Source: Octopus vulgaris (taxonomy: Eukaryota). From it: a stretch of 64,000 nt of DNA. The stretch covers positions 169,012,001 through 169,076,000 of the forward strand of contig OX597815.1 of the NCBI GenBank assembly GCA_951406725.2, given 5' to 3'. Position 1 is the stretch's first letter; each line of letters starts with the position of its first letter. Under the pieces are notes generated by a model. That model searched no databases and had not been told where the DNA came from. It saw only the letters and a list, made by a program, of their open reading frames with translations. This document shows, one piece after another, positions 5,570-54,722 of this stretch. Both the position numbers and the translations under genes were made by a program.

Positions 5570-5940
5570 TATTACTCTTTACTCTTTTACTCTTTTACTT
5601 GACTGCGGCCATGCTGGAGCACCGCCTTTAATCGAGCAACTCGACCCCGGGACTTATTCTTTTGTAAGCCCAGTACTTATTCTATCGGTCTCTTTTGCCG
5701 AACCGCTAAGTAACGGGGACATAAACACACAGACACACAAACACACACACGCATATATATATATATACATATACACTACGGGCTTCTTTCAGTTTCCGTC
5801 TACCAAATCCACTCACAAGGCTTTGGTCGGCCCGAGGCAATAGTAGAAGACACTTGCCCAAGATGCCACGCAGTGGGACTGAACCCGGAACCATGTGGTT
5901 GGTAAACAAGGTACTTACCACACAGCCACTCCTGCGCCTA
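5570..5940 (-). mobile_element. tRNA-derived CORE-like SINE (family A)
   Basis: A box TGGCTGTGTGG, B box GGTTCAGTCCC, CORE-like CTTGGGCAAGTGTCTT, central (CA/TA)n and a (TAAAAGAG)n tail. About 20 copies in the window. Confidence 0.85.
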
Positions 5941-8175: not shown

Positions 8176-8329
8176 TCTTTTTTCTTCTTTATCTTTCTCC
8201 TTTTTTTTTTTGTTTTTCGTTTGTATAAATTATTCAATGAAATATTTCATTCTATACGCATTCAATAAATTAATCGATATATATTATTTTTATTTTTTAC
8301 ATTGTTTGTGTAAGAAGCCATCGATATAT

Positions 8330-10265
8330 ACTCTTTTATTCTGTTACGTGTTTCAGTCATTTGACTGCAGCCATGCTGGAGTACCGCCTTTATAGTCGAA
8401 CAAATCGACCCCAGAGCTTATTCTTTGTAAGCCTAGTATTTATTCTATCGGGTCTCTTTTGCCGAACCGCTAAGTTACGGAGATCTAAAGGGGTGAACTT
8501 GGCCCTGAAATGGGGGCTGCACACAATTGAGATCCGGACGGATTCAGCCACTGTGCTTGGCTGGGTAGGATCGGTGATCACCGGTGAAAAGAGAGTGCGG
8601 ACGAAAGGTGCCGCGGAGATGTTAGTGAAGCGCCGTCTAGGAGTTCTAGGTGAATTGATCGCCGAGTTCGGACTGAAGCTGAATGTGGTTTTCGTGCCTT
8701 CGGAGAAAACAGGGCGGACGCACTGACCAGGGTGAAACGAGCGTGGTTGGAAGAACCGGAGGAGGCCCGGAAAGGGATAGCTGCGACGTGTCGGTTGGAT
8801 GACTCCGAACTGAAGAGACTGCACACTATGCATCACCTGGGTGTGGACAGGACCCTGTATCTGGCGAAGAAAATTGATGCTGACGTCACTAGGAGAAGCA
8901 TCCGGAAGGTGGTCGGGAGCTGCGACAGGTGTCAGTCCATCGACCCTGCTCCGTGTGGGCATGAACAGGGAAGCCTTTCGGTGGAGCAGAACTGGAAAAG
9001 GCTAGCTGTGGATGTGACGCACTACCGTCAGGGAATGTACCTCTCCATGGTCGACTGCGTGCCAGGCCGGCTGGCCATTTGGAGGGAGTTAAGAACGGGC
9101 ATTGCTGATGAGATCGCGTAGATCCTGAACGGGATATTTTTAGAGAGAGGTCCCGTGGAAGAACTACTGATGGACAACGGGGCGGCGTTTCGTTCGGAAG
9201 CATTGAGGGTTATGCTTGATCGGTGGAATGTGCGTCGCTTGTTCAGAGCAACGTATAGGCCGAGCGGTAACGGGATCGTGGAGAGGCACCATCGGACAGT
9301 CAAGGCCATAGCGGAAAGAGGGCACATTTCGCCGCTTGAAGCAGTTTTTTGGTACAACTTGTCTCCCCGATCCGGACAAGCTGAGGAATCTGTGCCGCAG
9401 AGAGCTGTGTTCAAATATGAATGGAGGCACCCGAGCAAAGCGCCGGAGGGTCACGAGGAAGAGAAGGGACCCGTTCGCGTGAAAATAGTGAGGAAGTCTG
9501 AGTTAAGCCACCAAAGGCGCGCTGTACGTCTCAATGGAGTAGAGGAAGGGTGACGGCGGTCAATTCCAGAAACAACGTATCCGTGGATGGAATGCCGCGA
9601 CACGTCTTGGACCTTCGTAGGATTGTCGCTTCGACGGACGACGATTCTGGAGAGGGGGAGAACGAGGTGCCCAGCTTGAGAAGATCCCTCCCGGTTGCAT
9701 GGTGGACTACGACATGGAACGGAGAGATTGTGATCTTTAAGATCAGGGTGGCGTGTGGGATGACGTCAGCAGCTGGGTGCGTTGACCGGAAGCTGGGGCA
9801 ATCGGAAGGGTCAGCAGTGAGGCGTGCGCATCAGCGGGGATTTCGGCCTTTCCAACGTGGGTCATCGAGGTGTTAAGACGTGTGAAGACGTTGCTAAGGT
9901 TGGGTGAAGCAGCTGCTATCTTTAGCGTTCGGGTCGGGGCTGTGACGAAGGATTCGTTACCACTGAAGGGTCTCTATCGGAGCGAAGAGAAGGTAGGTGC
10001 CTTTATATATCAACTATTTCGCACACACCACACTAAACACACCAGCATCGGTTGTCAAGCAATGCTGGCGGGACAAACAGACACACAAACATATATATAC
10101 AACGGGCTTCTTCCAGTTTCCGTCTACTAAATCCACTCACAAGGCTTTGGTCGGCCCGAGGCTGTAGTAGAAGACACTTGCCCAAGGTGCCACGCAGTGG
10201 AACTGAACCCGAAACCATGTTGTTAGTAAGCAAGCTACTTACTACACAGCCACTCCTACGCCTAT
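8330..10265 (-). mobile_element. Family A SINE split by the Gypsy fragment (8330-8480 and 10034-10265)
   Basis: The two halves join at TAAGTTACGG / TAAACACACCAGC, with only a few bases missing. Confidence 0.8.
8482..10032 (+). mobile_element. Gypsy/Ty3 LTR retrotransposon 3' fragment (RNase H end, integrase, PPT, 3' LTR); disabled
   Basis: RNase H-like IEIRTDSATVLGWV; integrase HHCC (HTMHHLG...CDRC) and D (AVDVT), D (MDNGAAF), E (GNGIVERHHRT); stop and frameshifts. LTR TGTGG...CCACA at 9754-10032 follows a purine-rich tract. Confidence 0.9.
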
Positions 10266-11106: not shown

Positions 11107-11282
11107 GGGGTACTACTTAAGAAGAGTGGTCCCGGTGAGCGCATCCGCGCTAGCTAGTCGTGACTAGTCGATCCTACAACTACTACCTAGCAAAGTAAAT
11201 AAAACACAAAGTAAGGATCGACTAGTCACGACTAGCTTGTGCGAGTGCGCGCACCGGGACCACTCTTCTTAAGAAGTACCCC
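11107..11282. mobile_element. Intact short Merlin-like MITE (same family as 2124-5302, opposite orientation)
   Basis: TIR GGTACTACTTAAGAAGAGTGGTCCCGG/CCGGGACCACTCTTCTTAAGAAGTACC, flanked by the 8-bp direct repeat CCCCCTTT. Confidence 0.85.
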
Positions 11283-12249
11283 CCCCCTTTGGTCCCTACA
11301 ACCTATATAAAACTTTCCACCGCCTCCAGAGGTCGTGGGGTGGTACCTCCCACTTTGTGAAGCACTGATTTAGAGGAAAGCTTTTATATGATCACAGAGT
11401 AGTTGAGTTCTAATGATGGAAATTAATTTTTTATTGCATGTGTTCAGTGAAAGCTGAAGAAACATATTAAATGAAATAGTCTTATCAAAGAAGAGCGTTA
11501 TAGTTTGCTTGAAATATTTTGATATAGAAGTAAATTGAATAATGAAGACAGAGGGGTTTTTGCGATACGAAAGAAAAGTTAAATAACCTTTATATGTGTC
11601 AGGCATAAAGGCCCACCAGAAATGGATGGCTTAAAGAAATAAAAGTTTACGTAGATTCTGTTATTTTGATTGCTGTTTATTAAAATTAAGAATATGATTC
11701 TCGTCAATTAAGGCAAACAATAGGTTTTCTAAAATTTACAAATTTCAGAAAAGCCCAATGTTTTATTTCATTTTCAGAACTATAAATGTACTGCCTTCTT
11801 AAATTTCTTTCAATTCTTAGCACGTAAAAATAATTTCAAATTGTTTTCCAGAGATTTAAAAAATATATATGTATTGAATGAAATTTTTGCAATCTCTTGC
11901 TTATTTGAAATTTGAAATAGTTTAAGAAAAAAAAAAAGAAAGAAAGAGTGGAACATTGTTAATTATAAAATCAGAAAGAATATTATTAAAAAGTTCCTCT
12001 CGTTTCCTACACAAATGCAAGAACAAAAAGATTAAGGCCAGTTAACGCGAACTAATTTATAAGCATTTAAAATTTTTGTATAAATTCGTAGAAATGCTAG
12101 CTCACCTTTAAACTGTATTCTCTGCACCCGTACAAGTCGTTATTTGAAGACCATCAAATGTCAGTTGTGTAGTCGAAGTTACCACATGAGCTACGTCGGT
12201 ATTATTAAGGTTCAAGTCGAAAGTTTTTCTATCTGAACATGCAACCGAT

Positions 12250-14544
12250 GTTACTTCAGCTCTGACATCCTTAGTAGGACAACTTTGCTCTGAAGTCCAG
12301 ATCCCCGTTAAAGAGTTTGCCGCCGCCCTCCAGGGTTTGTCCAAACTGAAGCTCGTCAGTCGGATTTCTAAGAGTACTCGAACTTGTTTCACCCGTGTTC
12401 TCTCGAAACTGCTGAAGAATGTCTGCCTATCCAACAACAACACGGATTGGCAAAAACTGTTCCTGTTCCCTTTGGTCTCCCTCCACGTAACGAATGGGAA
12501 TAGTGGATCCTTCACTTCTTCCCTAAATCGCAGTTCGAGCTGTTCGAATCTACCCTAACTACTGGTCATCTCAGGTCGATCATCAGGTCAACCCCGAACA
12601 ATGGTCGACCACCTAACTTAAAGAAGGCTGTTAATGCTAAACTCAGTGAATTTGACATTAAAGGGGATGTTCGCCTTCTTTCCTATTTGTCCTCCCTCGT
12701 CCATTGTACCTCAACCAACTGAAGGAGAAACATCCTCCGGCCCTTCCAGATGATTACCTACACTGGTCCGATCCACTAAGATTTCTACGACTCATCTTCA
12801 CTCCTGACAATGTCAGAAGGGCAACTGACTGTTTTCCAGCTGGTTCTGGCGCTGGGGTCGATGGCTTACGACCTCAGCATCTCAAGGATGGTATCTCCCT
12901 GTCAGCTGGTGATGCTGGGCTCGAACTCTTGGAGAACCTTACACAGTTTATAAACTTGTTCTCGTCCGAGAGTGTCCTTGCCTACATTCGTCCCCTGTTC
13001 TTTGAGGCCAAACTTTTAATCTCACCAAATCCAACGGTGACCTCCGCTCCTATAGCAGTTGGTTGTACTCTGCGACGGCTCACAGCACAAGTGTGCCTGA
13101 CCTCATAGCTGACCTAGCCGACCAAATGCGAGCTCTGGTTCCTAAACCACCCAACTTCGCATGAGCAGACTACTAAACTATCTGCTGACTCCCTCTCCTC
13201 AATCGCGATTTCGCCTTCATCAGCGTGGTGCTCCCCAATTACTGACCTAGCTTTCGAGTCCATCTCTAGGTCCAAATTGGTTAAACTCGAACAACTTTTA
13301 AAAAACCTTGAATTGAACCTCACCAAGGTTTTTTTATACTTAGGAATTACTTGTCAATTCCTAAGCTATTGCATTTTCTGAGAGTTAGTCCCTCTTACGG
13401 ATTCCTGTCGTCCCTCCAATACTTTGACGATCTAATCTTCAGGAAACTCGAATGCTTGGTCAATGCCAAACTCTTCTCAGACACCCGCGACCAAGCTGCT
13501 TTGCTCAAAGGGTTTTTGTGGGGGGGGGGGGGGGTCTAGGTCTGCGCAAGTGCTCGTCTTTATCGCTTCCCTGTTTTCTTACCTCCATCCACGCTTGCTC
13601 CCCTTTGGTAGGCAACATGCTCTCCTCCTCCAACGTGGACTAATTCCAACTGAGAGATAGATAAAGTTCTATTACCCTGGAGAGAGCTGGGTTTGTCAGT
13701 TCCGGTTACAGTGGAGGATAGACGAAAACAGAGAGTATGGGATAATCTGCGTTCAGGTTCCACTTTCAACTATCTCCTTGACCAATCTGATCAATTTTCA
13801 AGGTGTCACCTACTTTCAGATAATGCAAAATTCTCAGGGGACTGGATTGATGCCCTTCCTGTGGCCAACAATAGTGGTCTACTCAGTCTAGATGAATTCC
13901 GCATCTCCATCGCACTCAAAGTGGGAGCTGACGTCTTCAGGGGACTGAGATGCTGATGTGGTAGGCCCCGCGACCCCACAGGTCTTCACGGTCTGTCTCG
14001 CCGCCAAATGCTTGTCGCTTCGCTCGTCACACCGAGCTAAACCTAATCATTGAGCGGGCTCTGGCTTGGATTAATATCCCCTCAGTTCTGGAGTCGTCGA
14101 GGTTATCCAGAAGTGATGGAAAGAGACCGGATGATCTTACCCTCTGTCCCTGGGTTGAAGGTAGGTACCTCATTTGGGACACCGCAGTCTGCGATTCCGT
14201 TGCTCCCTTCCACAACCTGGATGATGCAAGTAATGGGAGGGTCACTGGTTCTGTAGCCGAACGGAAGAAAACCCTGAAGTATCGGGACCTGACAGTGAAT
14301 TCTATCTTCCAATCTGTAGCATTTGAGACGTTCGGAGCGACTGGGCCACTAACCGCCAAGTTCTTGTCAACGTTGGCAGCTCGCCTCGACGAGGTGTCAG
14401 TTGATGGCCCGTAAAGGCGCTTGGCATTCCCAACGCCTTAGTCACGCCATCACCTGTGGTATTGCTGCGAGCGTGCTGGCTTGCTTCAGTAGGTTCCGTT
14501 AAACCCTGTGATGTGCGACCAGCTGCTGTGATAAAAAAAAAAAA
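12250..14544 (+). mobile_element. CRE-like non-LTR retrotransposon with restriction-like endonuclease; internally deleted and decayed
   Basis: GSGAGVDGLRPQHLKD and PIAVGCTLRRL (RT N-terminal part); RHTELN...DGKRPD..LTLCPW..GRYLIWD...AERKKTLKY...FETFG (RLE domain); poly(A) tail at ~14533-14544. The 5' end is approximate. Confidence 0.85.
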
Positions 14545-27379: not shown

Positions 27380-27885
27380 CACAGGCATGGCTGTGTTGTT
27401 AGGAAGCTTGCTTTCCACCATGTGGTCTTGGGTTCAGCACCCTGGCCAAGTGTCTTCTATAGCTCTGAGCTGACCAAAGCCTTGTAAGTGGACTTGGTAG
27501 ATGGAAACTGAAAGAAGCTTATTGTGTGTGTGTGTGTGTTACCTCTTAAAATCATGCGATAGTTGTAAATGTTAATTGCTGTCATGCAAATGGTGTCGCT
27601 CATTTCTAATCTTCCATGAAAACATGTCTGTTCTGGGGGAAATACTATCTCACTGGGAAACAGGTGATAGTTAGCAACAGGAAGGGCATCCAACCCCAGG
27701 CAACAGGAAGGGCATCCGACCCCAGGCAACAGGAAGGGCATCCAACCCCAGGCAACAGGAAGGGTATACAACCCCAGGCAACAGGAAGGGCATCCAACCC
27801 CAGAAAATCTGCTTCAACAAAATTCTGTCTGACCCATGCAAGCATGGATAAATGGACACTAAAATGACGATGAAGTTGATGATGA
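27380..27885 (+). mobile_element. SINE family D (family A head with RTE-type tail) containing a 26-bp x5 tandem array
   Basis: GCAACAGGAAGGGCATCCAACCCCAG repeated at 27674-27803. Related copies at 24805-25225, 55415-55820, 57780-58125 and 60850-61285. Confidence 0.75.
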
Positions 27886-28017
27886 TTGTCAAATATATCC
27901 TGATTTTTGTTTTAATACTCATTTTAACATGCTGCTATGAGGACAGAGCTGCAGTACAGTATATGATCACTTGATCCTACATTTTCTAGTTTGTCCTGGC
28001 ATTCTACAGTTCTATAT

Positions 28018-28350
28018 TTAAGCAGACTGAGTGCAGATATGAACAGCATATGGGAACCGGCATTAAGGAAGGATAGAAAACTATTAGATTTATAAACCCT
28101 AAAATTCACTCCACGGGCATATGGCACAGTGGTTAAGAGCGCAGGCTACTAACCCCAAGATTCCGAGTTCAATTCCAAACAGTGACCTGAACACTAACAA
28201 TAATAATAATAACATTAGCAATGAGAACCCAGGTTTGAAATTTCCCCAAGACACCTGAAGAAGGCTGGAGGGTATATCAGCCGAAATGTTGTGTTAACAA
28301 CAAACAAGATGAGGACAAATATCTATCAAATGTAAACAATGTAAATAATT
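28018..28350 (+). mobile_element. Penelope-like terminal repeat with tRNA-like head and hammerhead motif
   Basis: ORF end SRLSADMNSIWEPALRKDRKLLDL*, then A/B boxes (28115-28187), (TAA)n and a hammerhead core (28250-28295). A second copy is at 44930-45325. Confidence 0.65.
28250..28295 (+). ncRNA. Minimal type I hammerhead ribozyme motif (degenerate)
   Basis: Stem I GACAC/GTGTT, core CTGAAGA, stem II GGCTG/CAGCC, GAAA, vestigial stem III and a GTT triplet. Confidence 0.65.
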
Positions 28351-31300
28351 GTACTGGCATTGTTATGCGGTGCATTAAGGTGGTGAGTTGGCAGAGTCAT
28401 TAGCACACCAGGTGAAGTCCATCTTTACGTTCTGAGTTCAAATTCCGCCAGGGTCAGCTTTGCTTTTCATTCTTTTTGGGGTTAATAAAATGCATGCCAT
28501 TTGAACGCTGGGGTCAACTTGCCCCTTCCCCCAAAATTGCTGGCCTTGTACCAAAATTTGAAATCATTATTGCATACTGCATTAAGGTGGTGAGCTGGCA
28601 GAATAGTTAGCACACTGAGTGAAATGCTTAATGGCAATTTCTCCATCTTCACATTCTGAGTTCAAATTCTACTGGGGTCAATAGAATAAGTACCAGTTGA
28701 ATACTGGGGTCAATATAATTGGCTATCCTCTACGGAAATTACTGGCTTTGTGCCAAAATTTGAAACCTTTATTTTACAGTACATTCTTACCAGGGCTGTG
28801 GAGTCATTACCAATGGTAAACCATGCCCAGAGCAAGCCGCAAAAATGCATCCCTCCCTCCTAATTACAAAATCCATAATATTATATATTTATTTGTTACG
28901 AGTAATTAATGTTTTAAAGCAATATTTTAGGAATAAATCCTTTACTAGTTTTCATTTACCTGCCAGTTCAGTACAGCCTGTAATTCAAAATATATCTTTT
29001 TTAATGTTTACTTTTACGAAGCCCTTTTTGATGCCCTTTGTAAAAATGTCCTGACATGAATGTAGACATTCCATCATATTGTGTTTACCTTCAATAACAG
29101 CATAAAACGATATGCTGGAGATCCATTTTTACAATTGCAATTTTATAAATGAAGTTCAAGCTTATCGTGTTATGGTCCATTCTGCACCCCACCTTCAAGC
29201 AGCACCCAGGGCATGTGCCTCTCTTGCCCCCTACTCCAGTTACACTACTGGTTATTGCACAAAACCTTCAACCCCACTATATATATATATATATAATCAT
29301 CATCATCATCATTTAATGTCTGCTTTCCATGCTAGCATGGGTTGGACGATTTGACTGAGGACTGGCGAGCCAGATGGCTGCACCAAGCTCCAATCTGATC
29401 TGGCAGAGTTTCTACAGCTGGATGCCCTTCCTAATGCCAACCACTCCGAGAGTGTAGTGGGTGCTTTTACATGCCACCGGCATGAGGGCCAATCTGGCGA
29501 TACTACTGATTTTTCTACACCAAGGTTAACACACTGTAAATTAAACAAATATTAGATTGACTTAATTAAGTGAAATGCAGGTGTCTGTACATCAGGTGAC
29601 TAGTCTGGTGGCTGTGAAGTTACTGCTCGTAAGTTAGTGCAGATTGTAAGAGGTTCCCGACCATCAATGCCTGGAAAGTGGGGGTTCTACCTGTGCTTCT
29701 ATTTGTAATGAGGAATATATTTCTGACATTAATTTATTTGTTCTTTCTACTATAGACACAAAGCCTGAAATTTTGGATGAGGGGGTTTGTCATCAACGCC
29801 AGTGCTCGTTTTATTGACCCTGAAAGGAGGAAAGGCAAAGTTGAAATTGTAAACATAATAATACATGGTTGCTATGAACCATCAAGCTATTGTTCAACAC
29901 CCTAACTTTTTTAAGTTTTTATGCTGAAAGGCTCTAACTTGGCCATTCTGGCTTCTTTTTATATCATGAAAGAAGTTACAAATATTTAAGCTTGTTTCTC
30001 AACCACCCGGTACTGGGTTCAGTTCCACTGCATGGCACCTTGGGCAAGTGTCTTCTGCTATAGCCTCTGGCTGACCAAAACCTTTTGAGGGGATTTGGTA
30101 GACGGAGACTGAAAGAAGCTCGTCATGTGTGTGTGTGTGTGTCTGTGTTTGCAACCCCCCCCCCCACTTGACAACTGGTGTTGGTGTGTTTATGTCCCTG
30201 TAATTTAGTAGCTTGGCAAAACAAGACCAATAGAATAAGTACCAGGCTTAACAAAAAGTAAGTACTGAGGTTGATTCATCATCATCATCATCGTTTAACG
30301 TCCGCTTTCCATGCTAGCATGGGTTGGACGATTTTGACTGAGGGCTGGTGAACCAGATGGCTGCACCAGGCTCCAATCTTGAGAGAGTTTCTACAGCTGG
30401 ATGCCCTTCCTAATGCCAACTACTCCGAGAGTGTAGTGGGTGCTTTTTACATGCCACCGGCATAGGGGCCAGTCAGGCGGTACTGGCAATGACCTCGCTC
30501 GAATCTTTTTACACATGCCACCAACACAGGTGCCAGTAAAGCGACGTTGGTAACGATCACGCTCGAATGGTGCCCTTTTACGTGACACAGCACAGGGTCG
30601 ACTAAAAATATTTCCAGTCGGTGTTCCAGCATGGCTGCAGTTTAATGGCAGAAACAAGTAAAAGATAAAAAAAAAATAAAAGAAAGCATAGTAAAGTGGA
30701 TGTTGAATGATGATGATGATTTTAATTGACTTCAACACTAACAACCTAGCAAGTGTCCTGACCTCACAGCTGGTAGAATTGTATTGTAATTTCATTTACA
30801 GTAACTAATTATTATCTGTTGTAAAGTAAGATGTATTACGGTGTTTAAAAAAAAAAAAGCTAATTAATTAAATGTCTGAGATATTTTAAATAAGATTATG
30901 ACTTTGGAAACGAAAAGAATATTTGATATTCACAACATACTGCATTTCATTTCTGATTGCCATCAGATGTTTTATTTCAATGTGTATTTAATACCTGACA
31001 GAATTCAGTATAGCGATTACAATCTTATTAAATCTTCAGGCATACCTCAAATTATGTCATTTCAAGTTAGGTCTTTTTTGACTTTATGTCATTTTTTAAG
31101 AAATTAATGGGAAAAATAAACCAACTCCAGCTGATTTATCTGACTTTATGTTGGTCTCAATGAACTTATTTAAAATAAAATTTTAAAAGACACCTAAATA
31201 CCAGTACTGAAGTGGAAAATGAAATAAAATACGCGTGAGAATATGTACAAACCATTTATTAAACAGGTATGAGCTAATAAATTTTTTTAAATGTTTTCCC

Positions 31301-43879: not shown

Positions 43880-44927
43880 ATTCCACCTCTGGTTTGAACC
43901 TGAAAGTTTTATCATTTAAAAACATGTTTAAATGCTTTAAAAAATGGTAGTCAGTGGGTGAAAGATCAGGAGAATATGGAGGATGTAGTAAAGTCTCATA
44001 TCCCAAGTCTGTGAATTTCTGCAGCGTCATTCTTGCAACATGTGGCTTTGCATTATCGTAGAGCAGAAATGGGCCACACTGAATCACCAATGCCAGCCTT
44101 GTTTTTTGCAAGTGAGCATGCATTTCAGCCAGTCAATTGCAGTAAACTCTGGCTGTAAATCTATGGTTGGCTTCCAGAAAGCTGTAATGGACAACATCAA
44201 TTGCAGTCCACTATACAGTCACCATAATCTTTTGCTGACACAATTTTGGCTTTGGGAAATGTTTGGGGGATTCATCACGATCAAGCCATTGACCCGATTG
44301 TTTACGGTTATCATAAAGGATCCACTTTTTGTTACAAATGACTATTCAGCCAAGAAAAGGATCATTGGTGTTTCGCAAAAAGAGCATCAAGTGCACTTCA
44401 AAAAACTCAACTTTTTGATTTTCGTTGAGTTCATGTGGTACCCATTTATTGAGCTCTTTCATCCTACTAATTTTCTGCAGATTGCATGAGACCTTTGCAA
44501 TATCAACACCAAGTCCCTGAGACATCTCTCTGACACTTATTCAACAATTGCTTTCAATTGTTCCTTGTCAAGACTGCATGACCATCCTCTACTTTCTTCA
44601 TCTTCGAAACCACCTTTGTACTGTGCAATCACTTGTGGACCCCTCTCCCCATGCTCTGTTGATATTGGCAGCAGTTTGGGAGGCTTTGTGCCCAAGCTTA
44701 AACTCATGCATGAAAAGTAAGCAAAGGTCTTTTTTTGTCATATTCATAATTAAGGGCCCCTATGCTTCAAGAATGTTTTCTGTCTGAAATAAGTGGAAAA
44801 TTATTAAAGAGCATACATCAATTATTAAGTGTGTTGAAATTTGCCTAAAATATAATTAAAATACTTTGATAAAATTGCATTTCAAAACACAACACTTAAA
44901 GCGGCCATTATTTTCTGAACAACCTAA
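43880..44927 (-). mobile_element. Mariner transposon relic, Hsmar1/cecropia-like DD34D transposase pseudogene
   Basis: KWILYDNRKQSGQWLDRDESPKHFPKP, YDNAKPHVAR and HPPYSPDLSPTDYHFLKHL. TA|TTAGGTTG TIR at 44927. The 3' end is lost next to a SINE. Confidence 0.9.
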
Positions 44928-44929
44928 TA

Positions 44930-45124
44930 CTTTTCTACATTTAAGAGATGTGGAATTATTTTCATTGTTTACATTTGACGGATATTTGTCCTCATCTTGT
45001 TTGTTATTAACACATTTCGGCTTATATAGCCTCCAGCCTTCATCAGGCATCTAGGGGAAATTTCGAACCTGGGTTCTCATTCCTAATGTATTTTTTGATG
45101 TTGTTGTTATTGTTATTATTATTA

Positions 45125-45162
<38 letters not shown>

Positions 45163-45325
45163 ATCACTCGGAATCTTGGGATTAGTAGCCCATGCTTTTA
45201 ACCACTACACCATATGCCTGTGGGCAATTCTGGAGTGAATTTTAGGGCTTATAAATCTAATATTCTCCTATCCTTCCTTATTACAGGTTCTCATATGCTG
45301 TTCATATCTGCACTCGATCTGCTTA
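44930..45325 (-). mobile_element. Second Penelope-like tRNA-head/hammerhead repeat
   Basis: Reverse-complement homolog of 28018-28350. Core CTGATGA-aGGCT..AGCC-GAAA at 45009-45051. Confidence 0.65.
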
Positions 45326-45729
45326 GGAAGTTGTTGTGTCCTAACATATGTGCTGCTTCTTTTAATTTTTGTATTTTCCAATAGTGTTCTCTGCCTATTA
45401 TGATCAGCTATACCCGATTTACTGGAGCTACAGTAGAAGACACTTGCTCAAGGTCCCATGCCGTAGGATTGAACCCTGAATTATGTGGTTGGGAAGCAGA
45501 CTTCTTACCTCACAGCCATAATGGAAATATCTATGTAGCAAATGTATGAAAAGAAATATTTGCACACGTTTGATTGATAAACTTGAAATACTCTATTTCT
45601 TGACACAAATAAGTACATAAATGTTGATCGGTAATAAAATTTATTGATTTATAGTGACCGTCTGTTGATACTTGGTATATAGATGTATATTATTATAAGT
45701 GAGTATTTAAAATACTCTTTAATAAACTA

Positions 45730-53520: not shown

Positions 53521-54289
53521 CTATTCTATCAGTCTTTTTTGTCAAAGCATTGAGTTACAGGTGTGAAAACAAACCGATACTGGTTGTCAAGTGGTGGTGA
53601 GACAGACACAGACACTTACATACATTTGTATGACAGGCTTCCATACAGTTTCTATCTCCTCTCAAATTCTCTAATATGGTATTGGTTAACCTGGACAACA
53701 GTAGAAAGCACTTGTCCAAGGTGTCATGCAGTGGGACTGAACCTAAAAACTACATGGTTGTGAAGTGAACTTCCTAACTACACAGCCAGTGTTATTTGTT
53801 TTCTTCTTTTTTTTTTCTAAGATGGCATGATCTGATTTCAGAAAGATTTGGCTGCTATTTCTAGCATGTTGGGTGACCACATAGAGGCTTGTTACTTGTT
53901 AATACCATTGTTATGATTAATGGTTTTCGTGACAGTATTTCATTCCTGATAGCATAAATATCTTCGTGAGTTACGGTTAACTATTTAACATGCATCCTTC
54001 CCATAACATCTAAGCCAGTTTTTCTAATTAGTATACAATCTCTTATATCTTACTAACAATAGATTGTATGTGCTTATGCATGTTAGTGTGTGTGCATGCG
54101 TGAGAGAGAAAGATTTTGTTTTTTTTCATTCTAATATCCATTTTTCCATGCTTTGCCTGGGTCAGATGGAATGCATTGACACAAATTCTTCCTGTCATCA
54201 ATCCTCCCTCATTTCTATGCAAAACACTTTGCTATGATTAGACGTGTTTCTAAATGGAAGTCTTCCCTCAGAGGGCTTAGTCTTTTTTC

Positions 54290-54722
54290 TCAGGGCCCCC
54301 AAGGACATACTCTACGGAGAGCTTGCTAGGGGTACTAGGTCTGTGGGAAGATTGTTCTTACATTACAAGGATGTTTGCAAAAGGGACATGAAGGCCTGCA
54401 ACATCAATATTAGCAATTGGGAAGCAGTTGCCAGCAACCGTGGAGATTGGCAACGTACTGTAGAAGAGGGAACACAAAGGAGTGACAGAGAGAGAGAGAA
54501 GAAATGGAAAGACAAGAAACAACGTCAACAAGAAACTATGACATTACAACCAGCCAGGAACAGTCTTTGCTACATTTGTGGCACCTGCCAGAGGGAGTGT
54601 TTGTCCAGGATAGGACTACACAGCCACAGCAGGAAATGTATTAGGACATGAAATGTAAAAGCTGGACTAGACTATTTTATGCGCAACTCCATTGTCTCCC
54701 GAGACAAAAAGGATGCCAAACA
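54290..54722 (+). mobile_element. RTE-clade LINE 3' end with C2H2 zinc finger
   Basis: PKDILYGELARGTRSVGR...YKDVCKRDMK...WEAVASNRGDW...CGTCQRECLSRIGLHSHSRKC. Confidence 0.85.

Follow-up and report, generated by a model that had tools for sequence, protein, structure and literature searches.

A tRNA-like A/B-box unit in the inter-ORF gap of a Penelope/Poseidon-type retrotransposon from octopus with a minimal hammerhead motif

At positions 28018 to 28350 of a 64-kb stretch of Octopus vulgaris DNA (hereafter the window), a reading frame ends and is followed by a tRNA-like unit with Pol III-type A and B boxes, a simple repeat and a minimal hammerhead motif. The original prediction took this arrangement, seen here and once more on the minus strand, for a Penelope-like terminus that might have become an independent, Pol III-driven and self-cleaving SINE or retrozyme. 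We therefore asked to which element the reading frame belongs, whether the two copies are independent units, and what the tRNA-like unit is doing between a protein-coding end and a ribozyme. Published systems are described below from the available sections of the papers cited.

The segment at 28019–28095 on the plus strand corresponds to the 3′ end of a Penelope/Poseidon ORF, i.e., the C-terminus of a GIY-YIG-type endonuclease, closed by a stop codon at 28093–28095 and matching the relative P0001 at 83% over 18 amino acids by tblastn. The second copy retains the last ~52 codons and the stop codon (45249–45407, minus strand; one in-frame stop, aligned part from 45401), 77% identical to P0001 over 43 amino acids. 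Used as a query, these 52 codons retrieved 98 homologues, with P0001 as the best (79%, E 6e-12), and 93 of them aligned to the C-terminus of P0096; three short ones remained unaligned and two were false matches. P0011 and P0049 were rejected as homologues, being peptidoglycan-binding repeats. In P0096 a reverse transcriptase (RT; RVT_1, E 7e-15) precedes an endonuclease that bears a YxGET motif, and P0099 and P0100, which also join RT and endonuclease, are 68–70% identical to P0001. The window itself has only the endonuclease end, and the RT with C-terminal endonuclease expected upstream of a Penelope-like terminus was recovered in these relatives. No Zn-finger-like linker between RT and endonuclease was visible by eye in the alignment of relatives, a trait that separates Penelope/Poseidon from Neptune and Nematis (PMC8557442); the linker-free arrangement, read by eye, therefore points to the Penelope/Poseidon clade.

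Atlas look-alikes of P0099 (score 0.97) belong to RT plus HTH_animal clusters, in some of which GIY-YIG occurs on 14–28% of the members. The Pfam GIY-YIG model had no match on P0096, P0099 or P0100, Pfam assigned no family to the 52-aa ORF end, and a word-based homologue search with this end found nothing, as did pattern and protein scans for related loci in viral, metagenome and prokaryote collections. The sole matches of P0096 in a PDB sequence search were two RTs resembling those of group II introns (E 1e-4), and the AlphaFold model of the relative P0027 (pTM 0.28, mean pLDDT 61) was too poor for use. P0101, 83% identical to P0001, is labelled Octopus sinensis, and the host of the family is likely Octopus. 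In nine of 101 relatives the translated sequence also covers the hammerhead or the region behind it, seven times in antisense upstream of the endonuclease and twice in sense, so that ORF and hammerhead end form one element, inserted in inverted or tandem arms. Collectively, the ORF end belongs almost certainly to a Penelope element. At least two sister Penelope families (P0002–P0094) share the endonuclease end and the hammerhead, and seem to differ just upstream of the latter.

Copy 1 is a whole insertion (28004–28350, plus strand) flanked by an 11-bp target-site duplication, with the left repeat at 27993–28003 and the right one at 28351–28361 (one mismatch, 8 bp exact); a duplication as good was found by chance in 86 of 200000 random position pairs. 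An inverted arm at 28005–28022 (minus strand) is the reverse complement of the family 3′ tail, overlaps the body start by 4 nt and is identical to the tail of copy 2 at 15 of 18 positions. Indeed, 382 RNA reads connect 28350 with 28022 through a switch of strand, and the loose sequence that follows 28350 is the family tail. The 3′ end of copy 1 is devoid of this tail, which is thus present at one end only and inverted. The post-hammerhead body (28296–28350) runs up to the common tail-less 3′ end of the family, as delimited by 222, 243 and 198 contigs from three runs that stop at 28350 with unrelated flanks. Copy 1 hence displays the 5′ truncation, inverted arm and optional one-end tail of Penelope/Poseidon; the latter two are described Penelope insertion features (PMC8557442, PMC11167929) and reflect, in Anolis, two reverse-transcription start sites (PMC11167929). 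Between the ORF end and the tRNA-like unit lies a spacer (28096–28114) from which copy 1 lacks 10 nt after 28110, and which, in copy 2 and in the reads, closes with a short hairpin (TGCCC-AC-GGGCA) where the head begins. The (TAA)n-type repeat behind the unit (28188–28214) is variable in length, with ~24 nt absent from copy 1 before 28215. Just upstream of copy 1, about five tandem 24-nt units (27684–27803) occur within a SINE-like repeat.

Copy 2 (45407–44928, minus strand) aligned to copy 1 by blastn at 76% over 375 columns (E 2e-80), with ungapped blocks identical at 85 of 95 and 49 of 58 positions, and these are the only two copies within the window; a weak match at 8283–8303 was rejected as a third. 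After the ORF piece, copy 2 continues with a tRNA-like unit (45166–45219) that keeps its A box (45212–45202) and has lost the B box after the first bases (GAGT), a long (TAA)n/(CAA)n repeat with linker (45090–45165), a degenerate hammerhead (45009–45051) and the 3′ tail, retained in direct orientation (44928–44953). In this hammerhead the core CUGAUGA is intact, stem I reads GATGC, stem II is interrupted by a G.A mismatch, and an in-frame deletion has removed 3 nt from stem III/I; owing to the broken stems I and II and the missing 3 nt, copy 2 fails the hammerhead descriptor. The announced minus-strand copy does exist, therefore, but it is more decayed in its B box and in stems I to III than had been implied. 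A target duplication was looked for around copy 2 and none was found. Copy 2 adjoins a truncated SINE, and ~20 nt between this SINE and the ORF piece (45402–45430, minus strand) match neither and may be filler or an inverted fragment of the element. Beside the copy 2 tail lies a mariner-like fragment (43990–44900), named by eye from translations.

To recover family letters, the reads of a raw RNA run and the contigs of three further sets (four organisms in all) were aligned to 27960–28420, yielding 9474 RNA reads and 37945, 30507 and 19357 contigs, the depths of which give no copy number; a termite-gut run (5% share) was left out of all counts. These thousands of matching reads and contigs indicate a high-copy family; in the O. 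vulgaris assembly, 6.83% of the sequence is assigned to Penelope-like elements (PMC13282606, supplement). Statements on variants, joints and loose ends refer to the 40 of 80, 15 of 121 and 24 of 1548 listed, respectively. Of 4324 reads, 527 carry the 3-nt deletion of copy 2, which accounts for about 1% of contig depth. A few loci dominate the RNA, as indicated by three variants (28067, 28073 and 28105) that are frequent there and reach about 1% or less in DNA; RNA depth was accordingly left unused as a measure of expression.

The minimal type I hammerhead of copy 1 spans 28250–28295 on the plus strand. Stem I pairs GACAC (28250–28254) with GTGTT (28291–28295) and encloses the core CTGAAGA (28255–28261), stem II (28263–28267 with 28278–28282), GAAA (28283–28286) and a 4-nt palindromic stem III (28286–28289), with the cut predicted after 28290. 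G28263–C28282 is the G10.1–C11.1 pair, and A28262, in front of it, the extra base 9/10.1. The minimal-hammerhead descriptor matched once on both strands of the 64 kb, at copy 1, and never in 100 dinucleotide shuffles; stem III of copy 1 is still able to pair through wobbles. The majority letters of reads and contigs (four runs) restore a cleaner motif, namely CUGAUGA (T at 28259 in 2658 of 3089 reads and 75–82% of contig depth), GAAACGUU and a palindromic ACGU stem III. Both the CUGANGA/GAAA motif claimed for this site and the guess made about its stem III consensus were thus confirmed, C at 28287 being the majority letter in 2130 of 4197 reads and in 59, 75 and 80% of contig depth. By its sequence the hammerhead is of the known minimal Penelope type, ordinary and predicted to be self-cutting: it shares with those hammerheads the 5-bp stem I, the extra unpaired base 9/10.1, G10.1–C11.1, palindromic 15.2–16.2, the lack of a loop 3 and the predicted need for dimers, and differs only in a stem II of 5–6 bp as opposed to 7–8 bp (PMC4209133).

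Rfam detected no hammerhead or tRNA over the window or over 28000–28400, and no stem variants, hence no covariation, were seen within the family among the 40 of 80 variants listed; a single compensatory substitution in stem II, of U-A by C-G, was deduced from antisense translations of the sister-family members P0043 and P0007, assuming single-base changes. The hammerhead region folds as a monomer with z −0.9, and the double-hammerhead fold of copy 1 reaches −16.4 versus −28.0 kcal/mol for the minimum-energy dimer, values that neither support nor refute a minimal ribozyme. In the predicted minimum-energy fold of the monomer, an alternative hairpin (28288–28303) occupies the putative cut site together with the 3′ half of stem I, and in this model could keep the ribozyme inactive. 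One RNA run showed no read-end pile-up at the predicted cut site, and no back-joint indicative of circular RNA was found among the 15 of 121 joints listed from a library not made for small circles.

These results answer the first part of the question. Both copies begin inside the endonuclease ORF, copy 1 has Penelope geometry, and neither is a tandem of hammerhead units, both being single. As ORF-bearing Penelope ends with a known type of minimal hammerhead, the two window copies are not the independent SINE or retrozyme that had been suggested.

We then considered where the ORF of the element starts. An ATG at 28221, just after the (TAA)n repeat, opens a putative ORF start (28221–28349, plus strand) that runs through the hammerhead to the body end with one stop, at codon 6, which is a minority letter of the family (1333 of 2425 reads have C at 28236 instead). 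The equivalent ATG of copy 2, at 45080, likewise opens a frame through hammerhead and tail. Each copy has one stop in this frame, at different codons, and the frame is open in the majority letters; the odds are modest, the chance expectation of a stop-free frame being 0.026 per given frame and about 0.08 for three. Differences between the two dead copies fall 4/3/4 on the codon positions, with one silent and eight replacement changes, and are uninformative. An Atlas search with the putative N-terminal peptide gave no usable match and no named homologue, and none of 43 candidates revealed another locus through a frame across the head. If this ATG is the ORF start, the only non-coding stretch of the element would be the 125–170 nt from stop to ATG, and this gap, the promoter/5′-UTR slot, is occupied by the spacer, the A/B-box unit and (TAA)n.

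The nearest characterised system is Anolis Poseidon PAc, in which the hammerhead lies in the first ORF codons, the template must include the first 172 nt of the ORF, and the ribozyme depends on the protein for cutting and is dispensable for insertion in vitro (PMC11167929). The octopus element resembles the Penelope/Poseidon clade, PAc included, in that a GIY-YIG-type endonuclease forms the C-terminus behind the RT and no additional Zn-finger linker is visible between them (PMC11167929, PMC8557442). It further resembles PAc in its 5′ truncation, inverted arm, one-end optional tail and hammerhead near the terminus, apparently within the ORF start, although the putative octopus ATG precedes the hammerhead core by 34 nt, whereas that of PAc is at stem II (PMC11167929). 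Unlike in PAc, its inter-ORF gap holds a tRNA-like A/B-box unit and (TAA)n. In the available sections of PMC8557442 ‘tRNA’ occurs once and ‘pol III’ never, and those of PMC11167929 mention neither. No paper on a Pol III or tRNA-like promoter in a Penelope element was among those listed by the literature searches, and a tRNA-like unit at this position in an element of Poseidon type appears new and apparently undescribed; Repbase or Dfam may annotate the family.

The tRNA-like unit of copy 1 maps to 28115–28187 on the plus strand, taking +1 to be at 28115, 7 nt before the A box. It comprises the A box (28122–28132), an anticodon-like loop CTACTAA (28146–28152) and the B box (28165–28176), both boxes fitting the Pol III type-2 consensus. 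At 28122 this consensus was matched with 0+2 mismatches and a 33-nt gap, and in 20 shuffles it was not matched at all, in agreement with the Pol III-type boxes of the original prediction; with the majority G at 28171 (1196 of 1762 reads) the fit improves to 0+1 mismatches. The boxes are kept and the cloverleaf stems have decayed, with folding z of +0.96 in copy 1 and −1.3 in copy 2, and ARAGORN, run on the window, detected no tRNA at the head. Neither copy 1 nor copy 2 contains a T4 stop, an absence without statistical significance (P 0.55 and 0.34). We infer that the head derives from a tRNA, judging by its two boxes, the distance between them and the anticodon-like loop. It resembles tRNA-derived SINEs, defined by A and B boxes 30–35 nt apart and an A box 10–15 nt from the 5′ end, in the consensus spacing of the boxes, the decayed tRNA body and the simple-repeat stretch, and differs from them in that it is internal instead of 5′-terminal and partnered by a Penelope element instead of a LINE (PMC8969392). 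Indeed, the head lies 96–190 nt inside the insertions, and neither of the two window copies begins with it. The Pol III consensus identified six other tRNA-SINE heads in the window, at 5928(−), 34911(−), 55254(−), 58268(+), 59817(+) and 61699(−); they apparently form three families, one of which has ~20 pieces in the window.

Since the tRNA-like unit sits in the promoter slot, the element may well borrow Pol III. That the A/B-box unit of the inter-ORF gap is the internal Pol III promoter of a Penelope/Poseidon element, and, jointly with this, that both copies are 5′-truncated insertions of such a high-copy retrotransposon, is a reading for which we judge the chances to be about even. Counted in its favour are the identity and insertion geometry of the element, the boxes with 0+1 mismatches, their 33-nt gap, the lost cloverleaf, the open ATG frame and the excess of head depth. 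Against it count the equal mate directions and the missing end pile-up at the head and at the cut site in one RNA run, a confounded depth step, and no clip at 28115 among the loose ends listed; the modest odds of the open frame, the lack of a named homologue for it and the hairpin predicted over the cut site in the monomer count against it too. Intact boxes over decayed stems would equally be expected of a captured and silent SINE head. Furthermore, an mRNA of ~3 kb is hard to reconcile with Pol III, whose transcripts carry no cap and terminate at T runs.

If the boxes do act as a promoter, Pol III would start 7–15 nt before the A box and read through (TAA)n, hammerhead and tail. By analogy with Anolis Poseidon, the RNA started at the head would contain the region for protein binding and reverse-transcription start, i.e., the first ~130–155 nt of the ORF, and the RT-endonuclease could insert copies of it elsewhere, with reverse transcription beginning from either the body end or the tail end. 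Cleavage by the hammerhead, after GUU (28290), would require a dimer and/or the protein of the element. Such a cut would remove the promoter-bearing head and sever the ORF start, and might thus serve as a processing or feedback step, maybe dispensable for insertion. All truncated copies with a retained head would then be potential SINE-like templates.

The main rival to a borrowed promoter is that of a passenger, whereby a tRNA-derived SINE, consisting of the head with (TAA)n as its tail, inserted in the gap of a master Penelope element that is transcribed by Pol II, leaving the boxes idle. We consider this possible, if doubtful. Head plus (TAA)n is a simple SINE layout, and the six further heads show tRNA-SINEs in the same window. 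The abundance gradient also fits ordinary 5′ truncation, with raw-read depth rising by a step of 2.7 from ORF end to head and by a similar 2.5 from head to hammerhead. Characterised Penelope promoters are of Pol II nature. They lie in the pLTR, with a 5′-UTR intron (PMC8557442), and this likewise speaks for a passenger. However, by-eye inspection of both copies and of the loose ends listed revealed no duplication around head and repeat, and the head is identical to the other window heads at only 40–46 of 73–75 columns, so that no donor family was seen. Besides, head and repeat fill nearly the whole gap and leave little room for another promoter outside coding sequence.

Depth and clipping of the contigs bear on another possibility, namely that a separate Pol III SINE-like retrozyme family (head, hammerhead and tail; ~240–290 nt) outnumbers the autonomous element that mobilises it, with the window copies as ORF-bearing relatives; we regard this as improbable. 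Summed contig depth of the head is 5–9 times that of the ORF end (9.1, 5.2 and 5.9 in the three runs), a ratio confounded by the exact-match runs of copy 1, which reach 13–16 nt in the ORF end versus 27 nt in the head. Consistently with such a family, 88 and 89 contigs are clipped at 28128, where the first head letters are kept and then fade into AT-rich sequence (agreement 0.43–0.44), and SINE-like repeats of schistosomes do combine promoter and hammerhead (PMC6765202). On the other hand, both window copies start in the ORF, the window holds no tandem units, and a sharp 5′ end at 28115 is absent among the loose ends listed. The commonest 5′ clip among these is instead 28111 (100, 147 and 81 contigs; 548 RNA reads), which fits a Penelope-type inversion: the letters beyond it fit a fold-back, or inverted duplicate, of the first bases of the head, and suggest a fold-back hot spot at the TGCCC-AC-GGGCA hairpin.

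The tRNA-like unit might also be an RNA processing signal, providing an RNase P/Z-type cut or a protective end and no promoter. Its full tRNA length, partial acceptor-like pairing and position just upstream of a weak ribozyme would suit this role, which nevertheless seems very unlikely to us, given the lost cloverleaf (nothing from ARAGORN or Rfam, and the folding z values above), the promoter boxes being precisely what remains, and the lack of a read-end pile-up in the RNA run.

Promoter and hammerhead are also found together in Schistosoma SM-alpha and Sj-alpha, where a Pol III-type promoter lies upstream of a type I hammerhead as in the octopus copies; after cleavage the promoter therefore remains attached 3′ to the unit before it (PMC6765202). 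SM-alpha and Sj-alpha are, however, non-coding and often tandem, with canonical hammerheads shown to cleave, whereas the octopus element is a protein-coding Penelope with a minimal hammerhead whose cleavage is a prediction from sequence. Animal non-LTR retrozymes similarly have a type I hammerhead, are related to Penelope pLTRs and would use Penelope enzymes; they differ from the single octopus copies, with their ORF ends and tRNA-like unit, in being non-coding tandem repeats that give rise to circular RNAs (PMC7229834; bioRxiv 10.64898/2026.07.22.740005). The available sections of these two papers describe neither a tRNA-like part nor Pol III in retrozymes.

In its widest form, the promoter reading describes an autonomous Penelope/Poseidon element running on a captured tRNA-type Pol III promoter, that is, a Penelope-SINE hybrid. 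Its truncated copies would be self-sufficient templates with promoter, hammerhead and tail and would multiply beyond the parent, and the element would show how SM-alpha-type and tRNA-bearing Penelope parasites arise. We hold this broader scenario to be rather unlikely. Penelope transcription and hammerhead roles are known from very few cases. Were the boxes a promoter, the family would test Pol III drive of a protein-coding retrotransposon, with the prediction of an ORF depleted of T runs, as well as SINE-like budding from a Penelope terminus with no fusion step, and would link the schistosome promoter-hammerhead repeats to Penelope pLTRs. Were the head a passenger, the locus would be an ordinary Penelope remnant.

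Elsewhere in the window, a near-perfect GC-rich inverted repeat (11120–11270) has arms of ~56 nt and an AT-rich loop, and is a possible MITE or element terminus; decayed retroelement-like frames (12108–14414) lie ~0.8 kb from it. Translations read by eye further revealed decayed LTR-type integrase frames at 8400–9900 and a LINE-like 3′ end at 54238–54651.
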